Origin: Chloroflexota bacterium | GTDB lineage: Bacteria > Chloroflexota > Dehalococcoidia > Lucifugimonadales > UBA3495 | Direction: 5' to 3' | Assembly (NCBI GenBank): GCA_028874075.1 | Contig: JAPPLU010000073.1 | Location: 16,973-80,972 of the forward strand | DNA length: 64,000 nucleotides | In this document: positions 13,217 to 56,777 of the stretch, one piece after another | Numbering within the stretch: the first letter of the stretch is position 1 | Layout: every line of letters starts with the position of its first letter | Program-made: the position numbers and the translations under genes | Notes under the pieces: model-generated | What the model saw: only the letters and a program-made list of their open reading frames with translations | Told to the model about the DNA's origin: nothing | The model's database searches: none

Positions 13217-13966
13217 CTAAATTGGAACGCTGCCTATTTGTTCCATGATTCTTGCTCCCAGCACTTCTATGGCTATAGTTGACTCTCTATCCAACTGAAT
13301 CACTGCCGGTTCATCTTCATCGGGGTTGTATTGAACCAACCGAAGCCCAACGCGTAATGAAGTAAGAATGAGAACAGCCCAAATAGCCATCGACATCATC
13401 ACATTTTTGTAATGATACTCCTCTCCCATGACGTCAATTCCATAAGGACTGCTATTGAGAAAAACTGATCCCGTACTGAAGTGAGAAAACATTCGGCTCA
13501 TCTTGCTGTAAACAATGTTATCCAGGACGTTAGGTTGGTCTAACCCCTTAAGTTTGTTACGCACTTTGGATGCGCTGAACTTCGAGTCCCGCTGGTTATG
13601 ATTGGAGGACAAGAAAGATTTCAGTTCTTTCTCGTCGCTGGTTAACAGCAGCATGAGATTGCATCCTTCCCCGATAGTTCTCAAAGTAGATAGAGCCTCC
13701 GCAACGTAACCCTTTTCTAGAAGCGTAAGCGCAGCGAAAGCATGGCTGACCATGCGCTCCAGCATGAATGTTAATTCAATCTCGACGTGGGAACGCTGTA
13801 TGACGGCAGCGTCCCTTAGGACATAAAGGGAACGAATAGCCTTATCAAGTACATCAGATAATTCCGTATCTTTTTCCGAATGAATCCACGACCAAAACAG
13901 TGATTCCATTTGATTATCGAATTCCCTACGGGCGTGGTACAGAGAGTCTCCTGAAGGTATTTCCAT
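13217..13966 (-). CDS. hypothetical protein (low-GC orphan)
   Basis: Track ORF is 13217..14080. ATG 13966 is preferred because AGGAG lies 6 nt upstream. A spot count of 13441-13500 gives 25/60 G+C (42%). I recognise no family motif. Confidence 0.6.
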   Translation of the reverse strand: MEIPSGDSLYHARREFDNQMESLFWSWIHSEKDTELSDVLDKAIRSLYVLRDAAVIQRSHVEIELTFMLERMVSHAFAALTLLEKGYVAEALSTLRTIGEGCNLMLLLTSDEKELKSFLSSNHNQRDSKFSASKVRNKLKGLDQPNVLDNIVYSKMSRMFSHFSTGSVFLNSSPYGIDVMGEEYHYKNVMMSMAIWAVLILTSLRVGLRLVQYNPDEDEPAVIQLDRESTIAIEVLGARIMEQIGSVPI

Positions 13967-14144
13967 ACAAATCTCCTGAGGAATCCTAGTCGGAGGGTGC
14001 CAGCGTTCATAAGTTGGAAACTGAAGCGAACGTATGGAACTCACCATGAATATTGAAGCTAGACATAAGGCCGAATTCACAGAGGGGAAGGCCTCTTGGT
14101 CCTAGAGGATCCGTTGGAGGAAAGTACGAAATTCTGGCCCACCC

Positions 14145-18072: not shown

Positions 18073-18340
18073 CTGGGAACAGTTTCTTTCCTCCTTTTGG
18101 CTCATGGCAAGTCAACAGCCCCACCGATTCATGTCACCCTGGGCGAAAGGACGTCACCCAAGGTCAAATTTAAGGGGGCCAACGTCTGATTACCTGCTCC
18201 TTGAGGCAGCGTTGGGTTTCCGAACCTAGTGATCTAGTGTACGATGCCACCATTCATAGACTTGAAGAGATGTTGATTGGCTGTAGCAGTATTTGGATGC
18301 ATCCGGGTATCTCTCCTCTTAAGAAAATCGTGAGGTTCAT

Positions 18341-19156
18341 ATGGTTCAAGAAGCGCAACTGTATAGAGGACTAGACAATATACCGTTAGACCAGATAGAT
18401 ATTCCTGAGTTAAATGTTAGGCGAAGGGAAGTAACCGCTGACCTTGAAGAATTAGCTGTCAGCATTGAAAAATATGGCCTCCAGCAACCCATAGTAGTCA
18501 TGCCAAAAGGAGACCGATTCAGCGTTGTAATTGGACAGCGGCGCTACCTGGCGTTTAGACACTTAGACAGGTCTCGCATTCCCGCACTAGTGCTCAACTC
18601 TACCTTAGATCCCTTGCGAGCCACATTGTTGTCGTTCAGCGAGAACATTCAGCGAAGAGATTTGTCTGCTCGAGACAAGGCTGCGACATGCTCTGCACTT
18701 ATGAACAGTTTAGGGTCTGTAAAGCAAGTCGCTGAAGAACTTGGGATTTCTCAACAAACTGTACGAAAATGGTTAGGATATGCAGGGGTGCCTGATTCTA
18801 TAAAGGAATACGTTACTAGGGGTGGTTTAACAGTTGACCAAGCACGTAGAATCTGGACATTTATTGAAGACGAAAGCACGGCGGTAGCGATCGCTCAAGA
18901 AATCGCCAAGGAACCGATTAAGGAAAACCGCGAAAGGATTCTTGACAGCGCAAAGGACCTTCCAGGCCGCTCGACAAGTGCGATTCTTAGGCTCGCAGCG
19001 GAGAGAAAAGAAATACGTCGCATCAACTTCGAACTCACTGACTCTGAAGCACGCGCCATGGACGAGGCCACACAGAATGCTAACGCTTCTGCAGACGATC
19101 TTGCGAAAACAGCCACTGTCGATTGGTTAGAGGAGAATAGGTACCTTCGGACATGA
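18341..19156 (+). CDS. ParB/sulfiredoxin-domain protein with a ParB-type HTH
   Basis: 271 aa. The N-domain reads LEELAVSIEKYGLQQPIVVMPKGDRFSVVIGQRRYLAFRHL (GxRRxxA box), followed by an HTH (VKQVAEELGISQQTVRKWL...GGLTVDQARRI). Composition is AT-rich. Confidence 0.75.
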   Translation: MVQEAQLYRGLDNIPLDQIDIPELNVRRREVTADLEELAVSIEKYGLQQPIVVMPKGDRFSVVIGQRRYLAFRHLDRSRIPALVLNSTLDPLRATLLSFSENIQRRDLSARDKAATCSALMNSLGSVKQVAEELGISQQTVRKWLGYAGVPDSIKEYVTRGGLTVDQARRIWTFIEDESTAVAIAQEIAKEPIKENRERILDSAKDLPGRSTSAILRLAAERKEIRRINFELTDSEARAMDEATQNANASADDLAKTATVDWLEENRYLRT

Positions 19157-19728
19157 CCGAGGAATTTGATAGGGCTAAGGCGTTACTTGTTTGTTTTCGC
19201 AACCTAAAGGGTGCTAAATCAAAGGAGTTACTATTAACCGCCAGGGCCCTACAGTATTTAAAGCAGTTGCCCGAATTTGGTTCAAACCAAAGCGTGGGAG
19301 AGGCGGTCGGCGTTAGTGGCGAAATCGTCAGGCAGTTTATAGGATTGCTTGAACTTCCCATGTCAACACGAGAACTGTTGGAAGCCGGCGTCTTGGGGTT
19401 GGAGCATGGCAGGCGGCTTGGTCAGATAGCTAGGTCACGGCCCGAGATAGTAGACCAAGCCGCAATGGCAATGACTAAGATGAAAACCATGGATGCTCGT
19501 GATTTAACAGAATATTTGGTTCGGAATCCTTCCTCGACTGTTGATGAAGGTATTCAAAGGCTTGAAGAAGCCAAACAGATCGTAAAGAACCAGTATCATG
19601 TTAGTGTTGTCCTGGACGAAGAAGCGTACGAGCTATTGACCTCTTATTCCCAAGAGCGCCAAATGCGACTTACAGACTTGGCAACGTCAATTATTATCGA
19701 CTGGTTGGGGAAAAATGAAGATAACTGA
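19153..19728 (+). CDS. ParB-HTH-only paralogue with a ribbon-helix-helix-like C-terminus
   Basis: 191 aa. SVGEAVGVSGEIVRQFIGLLELPMSTRELLEAGVLGLEHGRRLGQI follows the ParB central HTH pattern (..LRLL.LP......G.LS.GHAR.L). The C-terminal HVSVVLDEEAYELLTSYSQERQMRLTDLATSIIIDWL is RHH-like. The start overlaps the upstream stop (ATGA). Confidence 0.6.
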   Translation: MTEEFDRAKALLVCFRNLKGAKSKELLLTARALQYLKQLPEFGSNQSVGEAVGVSGEIVRQFIGLLELPMSTRELLEAGVLGLEHGRRLGQIARSRPEIVDQAAMAMTKMKTMDARDLTEYLVRNPSSTVDEGIQRLEEAKQIVKNQYHVSVVLDEEAYELLTSYSQERQMRLTDLATSIIIDWLGKNEDN

Positions 19729-20110
19729 CTTTAACGAACTATCTGAGGAACGTGACGCAGACTTTGTTACAGGTTTGTACCTGAAGTTTAGGGATTTGCG
19801 TCGTGAATGCCGTGACTGGATAGTTACGGAGATTAAAGAGCAAAAGCTAGAATTAGACCGACGCCTACCTAGTTCAGGCGGTCTAAATAAGGTCCAACTG
19901 GAAAAGCTTTATGAACAAGTTCAGGACCTCGACAAAGGGAAGCATGGCATAGCCACAGAGGAAGTCACTCAGGTCATGGAAAATGCTGAGAAAGGTATCT
20001 GGGCCAGTGTAGACGAGCCTGCTTTTTCAATGCTCCAAGAATTCGAGGACCTGCTAAAGATAGTAAAGAAACTAGCGGATATGAGGCAATTAATGGAATC
20101 TATCTCTTGA
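19715..20110 (+). CDS. hypothetical charged helical (coiled-coil-like) protein
   Basis: 131-aa ORF overlapping the upstream gene by 14 nt, which suggests translational coupling. I recognise no family motif. Confidence 0.5.
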   Translation: MKITDFNELSEERDADFVTGLYLKFRDLRRECRDWIVTEIKEQKLELDRRLPSSGGLNKVQLEKLYEQVQDLDKGKHGIATEEVTQVMENAEKGIWASVDEPAFSMLQEFEDLLKIVKKLADMRQLMESIS

Positions 20111-20125
20111 CATCACGGGCGTACG

Positions 20126-20878
20126 TCACGTCATGCAGTAACCTCCACACACCATTCCTTCAGGAATTTGAGGTGCATTGTTTCCTAAGGTGAGACGGTC
20201 ACGATACTCCCGAAGAGTTACACGGTCTCTCTCGCGGAATACTTGGTCTGTAAGTCTTTGGTTAGGGAAGTGCTTTGAATTTTCCTCCAAGGCTATCGCC
20301 TTTTCGAAGAGATTTGGATGATTAGTCAGCAGTTGCAGCCAACGCTCGGTAGAATTAAAGGGGCAAAAGTAACACCCACTTTTTTCGGGCACAGGTAAAC
20401 CAGCCCTCCCTATTACGTCTATGCAATCATCCCTGGTCATGCGCTTTTCTATTAGCGGATAAATGTTAGTGATATATTCCTCTCGGCTGTCTTTCATGCG
20501 GTGAACTTCATCGTAAGCGATCCCTATGTATTGATTGATGTGTTCACCCAACAGCGAGTAGTACTTGTGGATAGGGTTCACCTTGAAATCTCGAGTACAC
20601 CAACGCCATTGTACCGAAGGAATGACCCTTCTCCGGGAAGCAGTTCCGTAGAGGTCGGTTTTCCGGGGTCTTGCTTTGACAATGGTAAAAGGTACGTTCT
20701 TGTTTTCCAAATATTTCTTAGCGATCTCTAGGGAATCGTAAGTAGCAGGTGTTTCACCACCAGTGTCGGCAAAAACTACGCCGTCAAGCGGCTCGCCTTC
20801 CTCCACTAGCAACACCATTAGAGCAACTGTATTCACACCAGCACCAAAACTCAGGATATGAGCCATACTCCCTGCCAC
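20126..20878 (-). CDS. PAPS-reductase-like PP-loop ATP-pyrophosphatase family protein (phage/DndC-like type)
   Basis: 250 aa. It has a P-loop variant (ILSFGAGVNTVAL), RWCTRDFKVNPI, and cysteine pairs SGCYFCPF and MVCGGYCMT. It converges on the three ParB-island genes with a 15-nt gap. Confidence 0.7.
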   Translation of the reverse strand: MAGSMAHILSFGAGVNTVALMVLLVEEGEPLDGVVFADTGGETPATYDSLEIAKKYLENKNVPFTIVKARPRKTDLYGTASRRRVIPSVQWRWCTRDFKVNPIHKYYSLLGEHINQYIGIAYDEVHRMKDSREEYITNIYPLIEKRMTRDDCIDVIGRAGLPVPEKSGCYFCPFNSTERWLQLLTNHPNLFEKAIALEENSKHFPNQRLTDQVFRERDRVTLREYRDRLTLGNNAPQIPEGMVCGGYCMT

Positions 20879-21042
20879 CCCTTCCCAAACCCCGCGACCA
20901 TCTATGGATTAAGGTGTTCCCTGCAACACTTACCTTGTTCCAAAGTCAAGGGTAGAACATTTAGCTGACAGATTCCTAACTGCTACGTTGCGGATTTACC
21001 CGAGATTGCTTGCCTAGTTGGAACCTTTATGCATTCACTCAA

Positions 21043-54523: not shown

Positions 54524-55141
54524 TTAAGAGATGGCTTCCCCGAGGGCACGGTAAAATACCTGGAAGCTGTGTGAGCAATTGCGTTCTGGAACCATGTGTG
54601 CTGCCATGTCCCTTGCGGCCTCTATCTTTCGGAGGCCACCCTTGAAATAATTTCGCCTCTGGAGCAGCCTTTCAAAGGACTCGCATGTTCCTCCCGCAAC
54701 GGCGTCCGGGTCGCGATAACGGGCTTGACCCAAGGAACTGCGATTGATTCGCGGATAAGCCATGCAAATTGCTTCCGGGTCACCGATGTACCAAGCCTCC
54801 AATTCTTCAACTACGACTCGGTTTGCTACTTGCCATATTCCATGTGAACCTCTGGTTCGAGTAATTAGGCCAGCCCCATAGGCCGCTTGTTCGAGAGTGT
54901 TCTTCAGTCGAAGGCAACTGTCATCGTCCCGGTCAATTATCACGAAAATGGTCCAATGGGATGGCAACCATTGGGCATACGCTCGTAACCTGGATGGCAA
55001 TTTGGCTAGAAGGTCTTGCTTTCCCTGATATGAGTGGGTTTCATAGCTACAATTTTCAGGTAGTACGGAATCCAAGAATACCTCGAGAAAAGCCTCCATG
55101 GAAGGTTCCTCAACCAGGAATATTAGGTGACGTTCGTCCAT
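54524..55141 (-). CDS. DUF4276 family protein (Toprim-like acidic motifs)
   Basis: 205 aa with LIFLVEEPSMEAFL, FVIIDRDDD and VVEELEAWYIGD. It starts 5 nt after the upstream ATPase gene. Confidence 0.7.
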   Translation of the reverse strand: MDERHLIFLVEEPSMEAFLEVFLDSVLPENCSYETHSYQGKQDLLAKLPSRLRAYAQWLPSHWTIFVIIDRDDDSCLRLKNTLEQAAYGAGLITRTRGSHGIWQVANRVVVEELEAWYIGDPEAICMAYPRINRSSLGQARYRDPDAVAGGTCESFERLLQRRNYFKGGLRKIEAARDMAAHMVPERNCSHSFQVFYRALGEAIS

Positions 55142-55146
55142 GACTC

Positions 55147-56379
55147 CTAGATCAATGGGCCGACAAAAGTCCCCTGGTTAATGAGGGGATCGCCGATGCG
55201 AAAATGGCCTTCCATCCATAGATGTCCAAGCTGAGCGCCATTTGTAATGAAATCAGGAATTCCTTTGATTTCCGAAACGGTTAGGGCTTGGGAATAGCCT
55301 CTAGCGTCACGCCACAACACCCTCACTTCTTGGGGGCGGAGGGCGTTTAGAAAGAAGGGTGAATGCGTCGTTACCAGCAATTGGGTTTGCTCACTGGCCT
55401 TCTTACATTCCTCCCCCAGTTCGTGAAGCAACCGAGGGTGAAGGAAATTTTCCGGCTCTTCTATGCCAATGAAAGGAGGTGGATCCGGATCGTAGAGCAG
55501 CACCAGGTAGGCGAGCATTTTTAGGGTTCCGTCGGATGCGAAACGCGCCATCACTGGGTCGTCAAAGGGAGCGTCTTTAATCTGCAATAACAATCTCCCG
55601 TCAGGCATGGGATCTGACTTTACTTTTTCGAACCTGGGAACGCGGCGCTGAAGGGTGTTGGAAATACCTTCGAGGCGATCCGGGTGCTGTTCCCATAGGT
55701 ATTGGACCACATTGGCCAGGTTGTCGCCGGACTTGCTCAGGCGTTCATTAGGTCCCGCTTCAGGTTGCCCCCGTGCGCTGTCTGCTGAAAGGTAAGAGAC
55801 ATACCAACCGGCTATAAAGTTACGTAATGCCGCAACCCGAGGGTGCTGGGCAAATTGCCCCAAGGCACTCACGGCCAGAAGGTCAGGGGATTGCAACGGC
55901 TCTTCAAGTCTCTGATCATCCTCGTCTGGCAACTCACCACTGGTTGCGCGTCCTTGACCCTCGTGGTACTCCAGGAAGCGGAAGGGCTTGCCGTGGCTTC
56001 TCCTCCGCCATTGAAGCCACTCCGACTGCACTACCGGGCGTCCCTGAATCTCATCAACTTCCAAGTGGTAGGTAATAAGGGGCTGCTTCGGTCTTTCCCG
56101 ATACTTTACTTCAATGGTGACAGGGCCACCCGATCCCCGTGTCTTGAGCTCCCTGGCTCTACCGCGCCTGTCCCAGGCAAACCTCAAGCCGTACTGAAAA
56201 CACTCCGAAAGGAACGCAAACACATCGAAAATAGTGGATTTGCCGCTGCCATTGGGGCCAAGCAGAACGGTCAGAGGCGTCAAGTCTTTTAGCTCAACGT
56301 CACGCAGGGCCCTGAAGTTCTGCACCTTCAAGGACGTTATTCTGGGTGGTGTCCTTTCTGGGCTAACTTGGGAATTCAT
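55147..56379 (-). CDS. AAA_15/AAA_21-type ABC ATPase (SMC/OLD-like)
   Basis: Track ORF extends to 56580. I moved the start to ATG 56379 ([25 protein letters not shown]). Motifs are Walker [10 protein letters not shown], signature-like SDGTLKML, Walker [14 protein letters not shown] and H-loop [10 protein letters not shown]. Confidence 0.8.
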
Positions 56380-56777
56380 AAGTGATACAGCCTCTCTGGG
56401 AATCACGCCTGTGGATGCATCGCGACTTTGTAAGGATACCACCAACGAGCAATTGAACGCATTGCAAGTGGGAGCGGGCACTCGCCCATCCTCCAAAGTT
56501 GTGATGCGTCCTGCAGAAAGGCTCAGGCTGATATAAGTTTGACCGTAGAAAATTGCCTGCGTGGCCCAAGTATGAGGCATGCCTTTGATGCTCTTGGCTC
56601 AACAACAATTGCAGGCAACCACTGGAACAGGGTTGATAAAAGGCATAATCCGGACCATTTAGGTTGTTCGTTTGCCTTTGGCGCCGCACTTGCGAGGCGT
56701 TAGCTAAGGCGCGTTTCGAACCCGCCCCTACCAGCTACGAACCTCTCAAATTGAAACGGTATCGTTGTCCACCTTGT

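Follow-up and report, generated by a model that had tools for sequence, protein, structure and literature searches.

The 64,000-nt stretch of DNA analyzed here, which we call the window, comes from a Chloroflexota bacterium (contig JAPPLU010000073.1) and carries a compact cassette of four genes, p1 to p4, within an island of foreign composition (Table 1). Three genes on the plus strand encode a full-length ParB-like protein (p1), a shortened paralogue of it (p2), and a small acidic orphan (p3), and they converge on p4, the gene for a PP-loop enzyme that is usually labeled "PAPS-reductase-like" (PAPS, phosphoadenosine phosphosulfate). The whole cassette measures ~2.6 kb. A preliminary description of this locus, made from the letters alone, had reported that the genes are tightly packed, and each of the junctions it named is present in the sequence: the start of p2 overlaps the stop of p1 as ATGA (19153-19156), p2 and p3 share 14 nt, and the stops of p3 and p4 are separated by 15 nt.

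The island stands apart from its surroundings in both overall and third-position composition. Its GC content is 0.466, against 0.608 across the remaining window, and the G+C fraction at third codon positions (GC3) is 0.44-0.48 in the four island genes versus 0.79-0.87 in the flanking HAD-hydrolase, DUF1800, DUF1501, and glyA genes. Given these contrasts, we conclude that the island bears a clear signature of recent acquisition from a foreign source. The preliminary description had already called the region AT-rich from two lines of sequence, and its counts (21/60 and 37/60 G+C) are exact. The window is otherwise core chromosome, including genes for EF-Tu, NusG, L1, and serine hydroxymethyltransferase (SHMT), and the immediate neighbors of the cassette (HAD, DUF1800, and DUF1501 genes) are of a housekeeping type. 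No tRNA gene lies at the island edges, the nearest being at 31.2-31.6 kb of the window, and the borders hold no att site, direct repeat, or terminal inverted repeat beyond chance. Promoter and terminator scans of the island returned matches at shuffle level only. At the left edge, between an upstream membrane-protein open reading frame (ORF) and p1, there is a short stem-loop (18194-18209; CTGCTCCTTGAGGCAG, then a T-rich tail), possibly a terminator that insulates the cassette, although such matches occur at shuffle expectation.

Table 1. Positions of the island, its genes, and the upstream repeat element in the window
Feature	Position	Strand	Basis or remark
Foreign-composition island with cassette	18230..21040	no strand	GC and GC3 contrast
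p1: full-length ParB-like protein, 271 aa	18341..19156	+	ParB_N, HTH_ParB, TIGR00180
p2: p1 paralogue without the N-terminal nucleoside triphosphate (NTP)-binding domain, 191 aa	19153..19728	+	HTH_ParB
p3: acidic helical orphan in slot 3, 131 aa	19715..20110	+	overlaps end of p2 by 14 nt
p4: SspD-family PP-loop ATP-pyrophosphatase ("PAPS-reductase-like")	20126..20866	-	PADLOC SspD, phrog_424, AlphaFold (AF2) model
Two GCAGGGA copies upstream of p4 (TCCCTGC on +)	20869-20875, 20918-20924	-	family-wide GCAGGA-type array

The enzyme encoded by p4 belongs to the SspD branch of the PP-loop ATP pyrophosphatases, where it groups with SspD and with phage "PAPS reductases" and not with the assimilatory PAPS/APS (adenosine phosphosulfate) reductase CysH. 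Its reading frame (20126-20878) gives 250 aa from a GTG at 20878 or 246 aa from the ATG at 20866, and the ATG is the more likely start because the identical protein in the public record, labeled a PAPS reductase family protein, has 246 aa. Among PADLOC models, p4 matched SspD best (8e-33, profile positions 2-204 of 277), ahead of BrxP (9e-10), where the match was limited to the PP-loop domain (137-251 of 779), and DndC (5e-5). The phage family phrog_424 was matched at 2e-42. The Pfam PAPS_reduct family was borderline (23.2 versus 22.5 bits, residues 8-111 only), and the DndC model TIGR03183 gave an E value of 0.11, with 11 bits versus a cut-off of 290.

An alignment-based AF2 model of p4, with a mean predicted local distance difference test score (pLDDT) of 88.9, is confident and shows a PP-loop fold. 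Its nearest solved folds were PAPS/APS reductases, at template-modeling (TM) scores of ~0.5 and 15-20% identity, and the next were the sulfur-inserting or thiolating PP-loop enzymes YcfA, [4Fe-4S] LarE, TtuA, NcsA, and MnmA; the best viral match was a Vibrio phage "PAPS reductase" (TMq 0.72). By profile, the nearest solved sequence was PptA (PDB 21fy chain C, 3.6e-4), from a multi-chain 2026 entry for which we found no descriptive paper; this structure may help to clarify which reaction the family catalyzes. We considered CysH as an identity for p4 and rejected it: CysH structures scored only E 0.18-0.39 by profile, the folds agree at TM ~0.5, and p4 lacks the ECGLH tail, ending in CGGYCMT instead. 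In addition, no sulfate-assimilation (cys) genes surround p4 in the window. The earlier view that p4 does not serve sulfate assimilation thus stands.

Conservation among 60 homologues picks out a modified PP-loop and a set of cysteines. The PP-loop residues S6, G8, G10, and N12 are invariant, together with D34, and so are five cysteines, C148, C165-x2-C168, and C240-x3-C244, the C240/C244 pair lying in a flexible tail; these probably suit an Fe-S or persulfide site. The preliminary description had recognized the PAPS-reductase/PP-loop layout and the CYFC and CGGYC cysteine pairs, which we confirm. It had also called the nucleotide-binding loop a "P-loop variant," which is instead a PP-loop, and had listed the RWCTRD motif, the cysteine of which is variable (33 Cys, 24 Ser, and 3 other residues among the 60 homologues).

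The first two genes of the cassette are both derived from ParB. The p1 protein consists of a ParB N-terminal NTP-binding domain (ParB_N, PF02195, 9.5e-12), a ParB helix-turn-helix (HTH; HTH_ParB, PF17762, 2.4e-8), and a short C-terminal strand-helix-helix tail. It matches TIGR00180 at 6e-26 (91 bits, cut-off 58), is annotated by NCBI as a partition protein, and has Spo0J, ParB, and Noc as its closest solved structures (2e-18 to 1e-12, with Spo0J 1vz0 at 2e-18). The p2 protein contains HTH_ParB alone (2.5e-6) and aligns with p1 by BLASTP at 2e-8 over 154 residues, from the HTH through the C-terminus, so that it carries the same type of tail; an equivalent of ~190 aa occurs in 35 of 39 non-redundant loci with a p1+p2 cassette. 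These matches bear out what had been proposed from the letters, namely, a ParB N-domain with GQRR plus a ParB-type HTH in p1 and an HTH-only paralogue in p2. An imperfect hairpin-type inverted repeat within the p2 coding sequence (19413-19463; 22-nt arms with 77% complementarity around a 7-nt loop) is not shared by other cassettes at the equivalent position and is probably due to chance.

The NTP pocket of p1 departs from that of chromosomal ParB at one defining position. In chromosomal ParB, the Glu of the GERR box is one of two residues for cytidine triphosphate (CTP) hydrolysis, and Arg and Asn residues bind the phosphates (PMC13229309). Box II of p1 reads GQRR instead of GERR, and G65, Q66, R67, and R68 are invariant in 42 homologues, as are the box I and III residues N25, R27, E101, N102, Q104, and R105. 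The p1 family therefore does not have the GERRxRA box with its catalytic Glu, which is replaced in all 42 homologues. Since the pocket residues are conserved and Gln stands in for the hydrolytic Glu, the p1 family looks able to bind NTP and impaired in its hydrolysis.

The shared C-terminal tail of p1 and p2 is plausible by eye as a ribbon-helix-helix (RHH) segment, as the preliminary description had suggested for p2. Isolated p1 and p2 tails gave no Pfam RHH match and no match to ParD, and hhalign placed the p1 family in register with CopG, strand on strand, at E 0.014 and a probability of 3%, with a CopG sequence that was approximate.

In contrast to its neighbors, p3 belongs to no family in four profile libraries, as expected from its earlier description as a charged helical orphan. 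A word-indexed homology search with p3 returned p3 itself only, and an exhaustive search among 1.84 billion cluster representatives found seven other clusters, six of them of 128-139 aa. The protein evolves fast: p3 identity is 22-28% between cassettes in which p4 is ~75% identical, and what persists are charged motifs (ERD, RxW(I/V)xxExK, and EL...R).

To place the cassette in a wider context, we gathered p4 relatives of 45-80% identity from species-representative genomes, metagenomes, and individual contigs and detected their p1 and p2 partners with iterated hidden Markov models. Of the non-redundant p4 loci, 32 have flanks of 2.4 kb or more on each side; in this set, p1 (~272 aa) and p2 (~190 aa) were both present at 21, one of them at 4, and neither at 7. 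Most often the genes are arranged as in the window, with p1-p2-[slot 3] facing a convergent p4. Hosts of the cassette are Dehalococcoidia/Chloroflexota, one Poribacteria metagenome-assembled genome (MAG), and one Nitrosomirales archaeon. The Poribacteria copy (L017:9833-12500) has a GC content of 0.35-0.39 within flanks of ~0.6-0.7 and similar transposase-like ORFs on both sides, and it looks like a recent insertion in the style of a composite transposon; DDE transposases recur in cassette flanks. The cassette is thus real, conserved, and horizontally mobile across phyla and across two prokaryotic domains, which upholds the earlier description of a compact, horizontally acquired module.

Slot 3, which we define by position, is occupied differently from cassette to cassette. 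Its occupants are the p3 family (130-170 aa), a proteasome-like N-terminal nucleophile (Ntn) hydrolase, or an AlwI-like nuclease, and it is empty in four p1+p2+p4 cassettes (L068, L103, L104, and L108). Six scanned proteasome-subunit-like proteins match PF00227 at 1e-9 to 1e-12, nine similar slot-3 ORFs exist in total, and their M-T-L-V...G-A-D-S-R...K start has the Thr1/Asp/Lys layout of active Ntn hydrolases. One slot-3 protein has an AlwI-type restriction/nicking endonuclease domain. We conclude that the conserved unit is the trio p1+p2+p4, with a swappable third position of which p3 is one of at least three occupants. Of the quartet considered in the preliminary description, the trio is conserved and p3 is not.

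Several cassette variants also encode a small "8xMP" membrane protein (PF24838) with the motif EAxLHWxRNSYF, whose gene immediately precedes p4 in the same direction (L093:4313-4756, L096:387-965, L110:3454-3981, L113:5339-5746, and, in a Bathyarchaeia locus, L016:9297-9797). It may be an optional fifth component. We found no relevant literature on 8xMP, and the gene is absent from the window. A swappable slot, an optional membrane protein, and fast evolution of p3 are together typical of conflict systems.

The surroundings of other copies connect the cassette to defense loci in some genomes. In L002, a full cassette is flanked by Hachiman-like genes on one side and type III restriction-modification (R-M) genes on the other, and L074 and L126 encode proteins of 259 to 322 aa that match the PADLOC candidate PDC-M41A (2e-23), one of them 24 nt from the cassette. 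The flanks of these last two cassettes also hold extra pairs of ParB-like paralogues. Two close p4 homologues (L003:10001-10747, 61% identity; L012:9923-10735, 73% identity) are solo genes without p1 or p2 beside BREX loci; one adjoins an ORF upstream of BrxB at the operon start, and the other adjoins BrxL/PglZ. In the Bathyarchaeia locus (L016:9297-13720), 8xMP and a p4 homologue are followed by a convergent 251-aa protein of unknown function, a 440-aa BrxC/BrxD-type (SspC-like) ATPase, and a 275-aa unknown; this order resembles an archaeal version of Ssp, with no ParB proteins. Other cassettes are flanked by housekeeping genes or transposases. A defense-island context, raised as a possibility at the outset, is therefore real for some copies (L002, L074, and L126), not universal, and absent in the window.

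The same survey bears on whether the cassette is the cargo of phages or plasmids. Phage, plasmid, and IMG/VR collections contain no relative above 40% identity. On mobile elements, the distant p4 relatives occur singly or as fusion proteins, and many of them neighbor DNA methyltransferase genes. No ParA occurs in the cassette loci examined, and no ParA-type Walker A motif (KGGxGK[ST]) was found in any frame of the window, consistent with the earlier statement that the window holds no ParA partner. The possibility that homologues exist only as prophage or plasmid cargo beside ParA was not borne out: close homologues are chromosomal and never beside ParA. Our PADLOC scan of the window covered ORFs of at least 170 aa, and 25 of 99 PADLOC families and 25 of 64 Pfam families were listed. 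Among the PADLOC families listed, SspD is the only Dnd or Ssp component, in agreement with the earlier claim that no Dnd or Ssp partner is present, although a distant partner elsewhere in the window is possible. Likewise, no integrase, replication, prophage, or cysteine desulfurase genes are among the families listed, and distant ones elsewhere in the window are possible.

A repeat element upstream of p4 was the one noncoding feature that stood out across the family. An unbiased 6-mer count covered 62 non-redundant regions upstream of p4 and found GCAGGA in 40 of them, versus 4.3 ± 2.1 (maximum 13) in dinucleotide shuffles; these statistics overstate the significance somewhat because related sequences are not independent. 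The enrichment, of ~25-fold, is specific to the p4 upstream side: the 150 nt before p4 contain 18.2 copies/kb, compared with 0.7/kb in cassette coding DNA, 1.2/kb in flanking DNA, and 0.15/kb before p1. The copies form an inverted pair (GCAGGAG-N6-8-CTCCTGC) or stand in tandem, with a dominant spacing of 9-10 bp, about a helical turn, and palindromic versions occur in L001, L002, and L008-L010. The two GCAGGGA copies of the window are not significant by themselves. Palindromes of any kind were about as frequent in each cassette as in shuffled sequence, and the GCAGGA-type element alone stood out. We did not detect it upstream of p4 in the Poribacteria copy (L017), and L074 and L126 have a different palindrome there, TACCGATA-N2-TATCGGTA. 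We regard the GCAGGA array as a putative operator or loading site. Since it is kept in bacterial and archaeal hosts, its most economical reader would be a cassette protein, that is, p1 and/or p2.

The pairing of a ParB-superfamily protein with a PAPS-reductase-like enzyme is a known theme, seen in DndB/DndC, SspE/SspD, IbrB/IbrA, and the predicted PANGU Cluster 9, and yet the cassette lacks the defining features of Dnd, Ssp, IbrAB, and PANGU Cluster 9. The closest likeness is to SspABCD(-SspE), whose SspD model matches p4 best and is likewise small, horizontally mobile, and a PP-loop protein with conserved cysteines; the archaeal p4 relative in L016 even adjoins an SspC-like ATPase. Ssp also has a ParB-superfamily domain, the DUF262 of SspE (PMC11662687). 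However, no SspA, SspB (DUF4007), or SspC lies in or near the cassette, within the scope of the PADLOC families listed, and the partner of p4 is a canonical ParB N-domain plus HTH rather than DUF262-HNH, accompanied by a paralogue without the N-domain and by a swappable third gene.

The other phosphorothioation systems resemble the cassette in part. Like the cassette, DndBCDE encodes a ParB-superfamily DNA-binding protein, DndB, which regulates its system, together with a PAPS-reductase-like enzyme, and its cysteine desulfurase can come in trans (PMC10853773). The p4 protein is only weakly related to DndC, however, p1 is not DGQHR/DndB-like, and there were no DndB, DndD, or DndE matches. The likeness to BREX type 4 concerns the PP-loop domain of BrxP alone, with no DUF4007 fusion and no Brx genes near the window cassette, although the two solo p4 homologues described above abut type 1-like BREX loci. 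In TdpABC, which we compared by description only, the single PP-loop gene tdpC suffices to make phosphorothioate, via an adenylated intermediate and without a P-loop NTPase (PMC12914056). Such one-enzyme sufficiency is the condition that the p4 cassette would need, whereas TdpA and TdpB have no counterpart in the cassette and Tdp includes no ParB-like partner.

Other systems resemble the cassette mainly in their ParB-like component. KorB/KorA of plasmid RK2, VirB, and Noc are ParB-type CTP switches that act in gene regulation rather than segregation, and KorB/KorA, a ParB-fold NTP switch with an HTH and a small DNA-binding partner at operator repeats, offers a model for p1 and p2. The cassette differs from it in the Gln that replaces the hydrolytic Glu of p1, whose CTP binding we presume, and in the regulated gene, a predicted DNA-modification enzyme. 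ParABS shares the ParB N-domain and HTH, and the cassette differs from it in having no ParA partner, no GERR Glu, and no plasmid or phage replicon. IbrA/IbrB and the PANGU-like Clusters 8 and 9 combine PAPS-reductase-like, ParB-domain, and small DNA-binding proteins on mobile DNA, but p4 has no DUF3440, no prophage genes are among the window families listed, and p1-p4 match no nucleoid-associated protein (NAP)/NA37 family at E ≤ 1. Phage 5mYOX systems place a ParB homologue with conserved NTP-pocket residues beside a DNA-modifying enzyme, and this phage ParB activates the thymidine dioxygenase on double-stranded DNA (PMC13229309); in contrast to the cassette, that enzyme is an iron/2-oxoglutarate (Fe/2OG) dioxygenase, the ParBs lack the HTH that p1 and p2 keep, and the genes are phage-borne, not chromosomal.

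We found no convincing match of p1-p3 to any PADLOC 2.0 model and no description of the cassette in PADLOC 2.0 or the searchable literature, so the composition that the preliminary description did not recognize as a described system remained unmatched here as well. Two comparative-genomics papers on phosphorothioation and BREX machinery describe neither the cassette nor the proteasome-like partners, and a preprint surveying the ParB-CTPase fold does not mention PAPS reductase partners. The cassette looks like an undescribed variant of DNA-modification/defense systems.

On balance, we think it somewhat more probable than an even call that the island is a copy of a mobile ParB-associated DNA-modification module of the Ssp/Dnd type, self-regulated and acting in genetic conflict. 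Like the preliminary description, we infer the DNA-modification or defense function from homology and context, and the substrate, the chemistry, the contacts of the proteins with DNA and with each other, the part played by p3, and the defense phenotype set out here are proposals on the same footing. In this model, p4 would use ATP to adenylate a position on DNA, most likely a backbone phosphate, following the precedent of SspD, DndC, BrxP, and TdpC, or else a base carbonyl, and would then swap the adenylate for sulfur carried by its invariant cysteines (C148, the CxxC pair, and the flexible C-terminal CxxxC tail), with a housekeeping cysteine desulfurase as the presumed sulfur source. Because the PP-loop enzymes YcfA, TtuA, and QueC act on bases, a thio- or amino-base product is also possible.

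The ParB-like proteins would supply control and perhaps targeting. The p1 and p2 proteins would associate, probably via the C-terminal tail common to both, and occupy the GCAGGA-type array before p4, thereby controlling the expression of a potentially harmful enzyme, as KorB/KorA do on RK2 and as DndB, a ParB-superfamily regulator, does for the dnd genes (PMC10853773). With its NTP pocket and Gln for the hydrolytic Glu, p1 would probably form long-lived NTP-bound clamps on DNA, and these could deliver or activate p4, a role that falls to a P-loop NTPase and SspB in known systems. The slot-3 gene, whether p3, the proteasome-like hydrolase, or the AlwI-like nuclease, may provide an accessory or effector arm against phages or other mobile DNA.

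A more specific version of this model is rather unlikely in our view. Here, the cassette would constitute a fifth, minimal type of immune system that modifies DNA with sulfur, as phosphorothioate or as a thio-base. The partner that scans DNA for p4 would be a hydrolysis-impaired ParB-CTPase-fold clamp of p1 together with p2, in place of the P-loop NTPase and SspB/DndE of Dnd, Ssp, and BREX type 4; this clamp would load at the GCAGGA array and work with interchangeable effectors (helical p3, the proteasome-like hydrolase, a nicking-type nuclease, or the membrane protein) in bacteria and archaea.

Several observations weigh against the proposed module. Dnd, Ssp, and BREX type 4 need a P-loop NTPase, and isolates without the NTPase had no phosphorothioate (PMC12914056), yet none of the four cassette proteins has a Walker P-loop. 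This difficulty can be met either by a Tdp-like sufficiency of the single enzyme or by the ParB fold serving as the NTP switch, both of which we argue by analogy. No cysteine desulfurase, SspB/DUF4007, or DndB/D/E gene lies in or next to the cassette, and because the best-scoring phrog_424 relatives have no known function, the chemistry of p4 could differ from phosphorothioation. The p3 protein shows no nuclease, protease, or other recognizable effector feature, and the cassettes of the window and of L001 are flanked by ordinary metabolic rather than defense genes. The solo p4 genes beside BREX loci (L003 and L012) keep the upstream CAGGAG...CTCCTG element, so that neither p4 nor the element strictly needs adjacent p1 and p2; operator variants show no visible co-variation with the recognition helices or tails of p1 and p2; and RHH-type dimerization through those tails is unproven.

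A rival explanation is a modification-only ("orphan") or anti-restriction module, in which p4 would modify host or element DNA, either to shield it from modification-sensitive nucleases or for an epigenetic effect, p1 and p2 are transcriptional regulators only, and slot 3 holds accessory cargo that neither restricts nor causes abortive infection. We consider this explanation unlikely. In its favor, distant phage and plasmid relatives of p4 are solo genes that neighbor DNA methyltransferases in early or accessory parts of those elements, PAPS reductases of phages have been discussed as anti-defense candidates, with one reported to help evade Dnd (PMC13551039), four cassettes do without a slot-3 gene, p3 has no effector motif, and an array at the p4 promoter is what plain regulation predicts. 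On the other hand, the close p4 clade is chromosomal and absent from the phage, plasmid, and IMG/VR collections, the slot-3 nuclease and Ntn hydrolase and the optional membrane protein look like effectors, and a full ParB with a conserved NTP pocket exceeds the needs of a simple repressor.

It is also conceivable, if quite improbable, that the cassette is a regulatory or sensor pair like IbrA/IbrB or PANGU Cluster 9, which makes no stable DNA modification and in which p4 acts on a nucleotide, tRNA, or protein; the two proteins would jointly influence gene expression or serve as the sensor and the effector of an abortive system. IbrAB, a pair of ParB-like and PAPS-reductase-like proteins, is annotated as a co-activator of prophage genes, a 2026 preprint predicts operons of a YejK-like NAP and a PAPS reductase, with or without Arc and ParBc, as defenses (10.64898/2026.04.06.716658), and the folds nearest to p4 include the tRNA- or nucleotide-thiolating enzymes TtuA, NcsA, MnmA, and YcfA. 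However, p4 lacks DUF3440, and its SspD score is much better than its score with any PP-loop family that modifies RNA. There is also no match to a YejK/NA37 NAP among the cassette proteins, and the cassette is not found in prophages. Finally, we reject as very improbable a leftover ParABS-type partition locus, of plasmid or phage origin, beside an unrelated sulfur-metabolism gene, since this reading, suggested by the ParB/RepB/Spo0J score of p1 and by the public labels of p1 and p4, is at odds with the p1-p2-p4 linkage kept across phyla and domains, the missing ParA, the catalytic Glu replaced in all p1 homologues, and a p4 that is not CysH-like and has no close copies on plasmids or phages.

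If the proposed ParB-associated modification module is real, it would represent a new way to target DNA-modification enzymes. Established phosphorothioation systems, except Tdp, pair a PAPS-reductase-like enzyme with a P-loop NTPase, and the cassette would pair it with a ParB-type NTP switch, extending the list of non-segregation jobs of the ParB-CTPase fold. The phage "PAPS reductases" of phrog_424, a large and functionally unknown family, would gain a tractable chromosomal relative. The small size of the cassette, its candidate operator, and its different third genes make for easy cloning and comparison, and its hosts (uncultured Chloroflexota, Poribacteria, and ammonia-oxidizing archaea) bear on the epigenetic marks to be expected in long-read environmental metagenomes.

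Two further low-GC patches occur elsewhere in the window. A second islet on the minus strand (13217-14080; GC 0.46, GC3 0.48) consists of one 287-aa orphan ORF between glyA and genes for thiamine pyrophosphate (TPP) enzymes; its only match was DUF5677, at a sub-threshold 1.4e-4, and it matched no PADLOC model. The other, also on the minus strand (54524-56580; GC3 0.50-0.57), lies ~34 kb away from the cassette, is unrelated to it, and holds a two-gene candidate defense system. Its 477-aa AAA_21/ABC-type ATPase matches PADLOC HEC-01A at 1e-161, as well as the AriA, AbiLi, PtuA, and GajA models, and its 205-aa partner matches HEC-01B at 5e-79.

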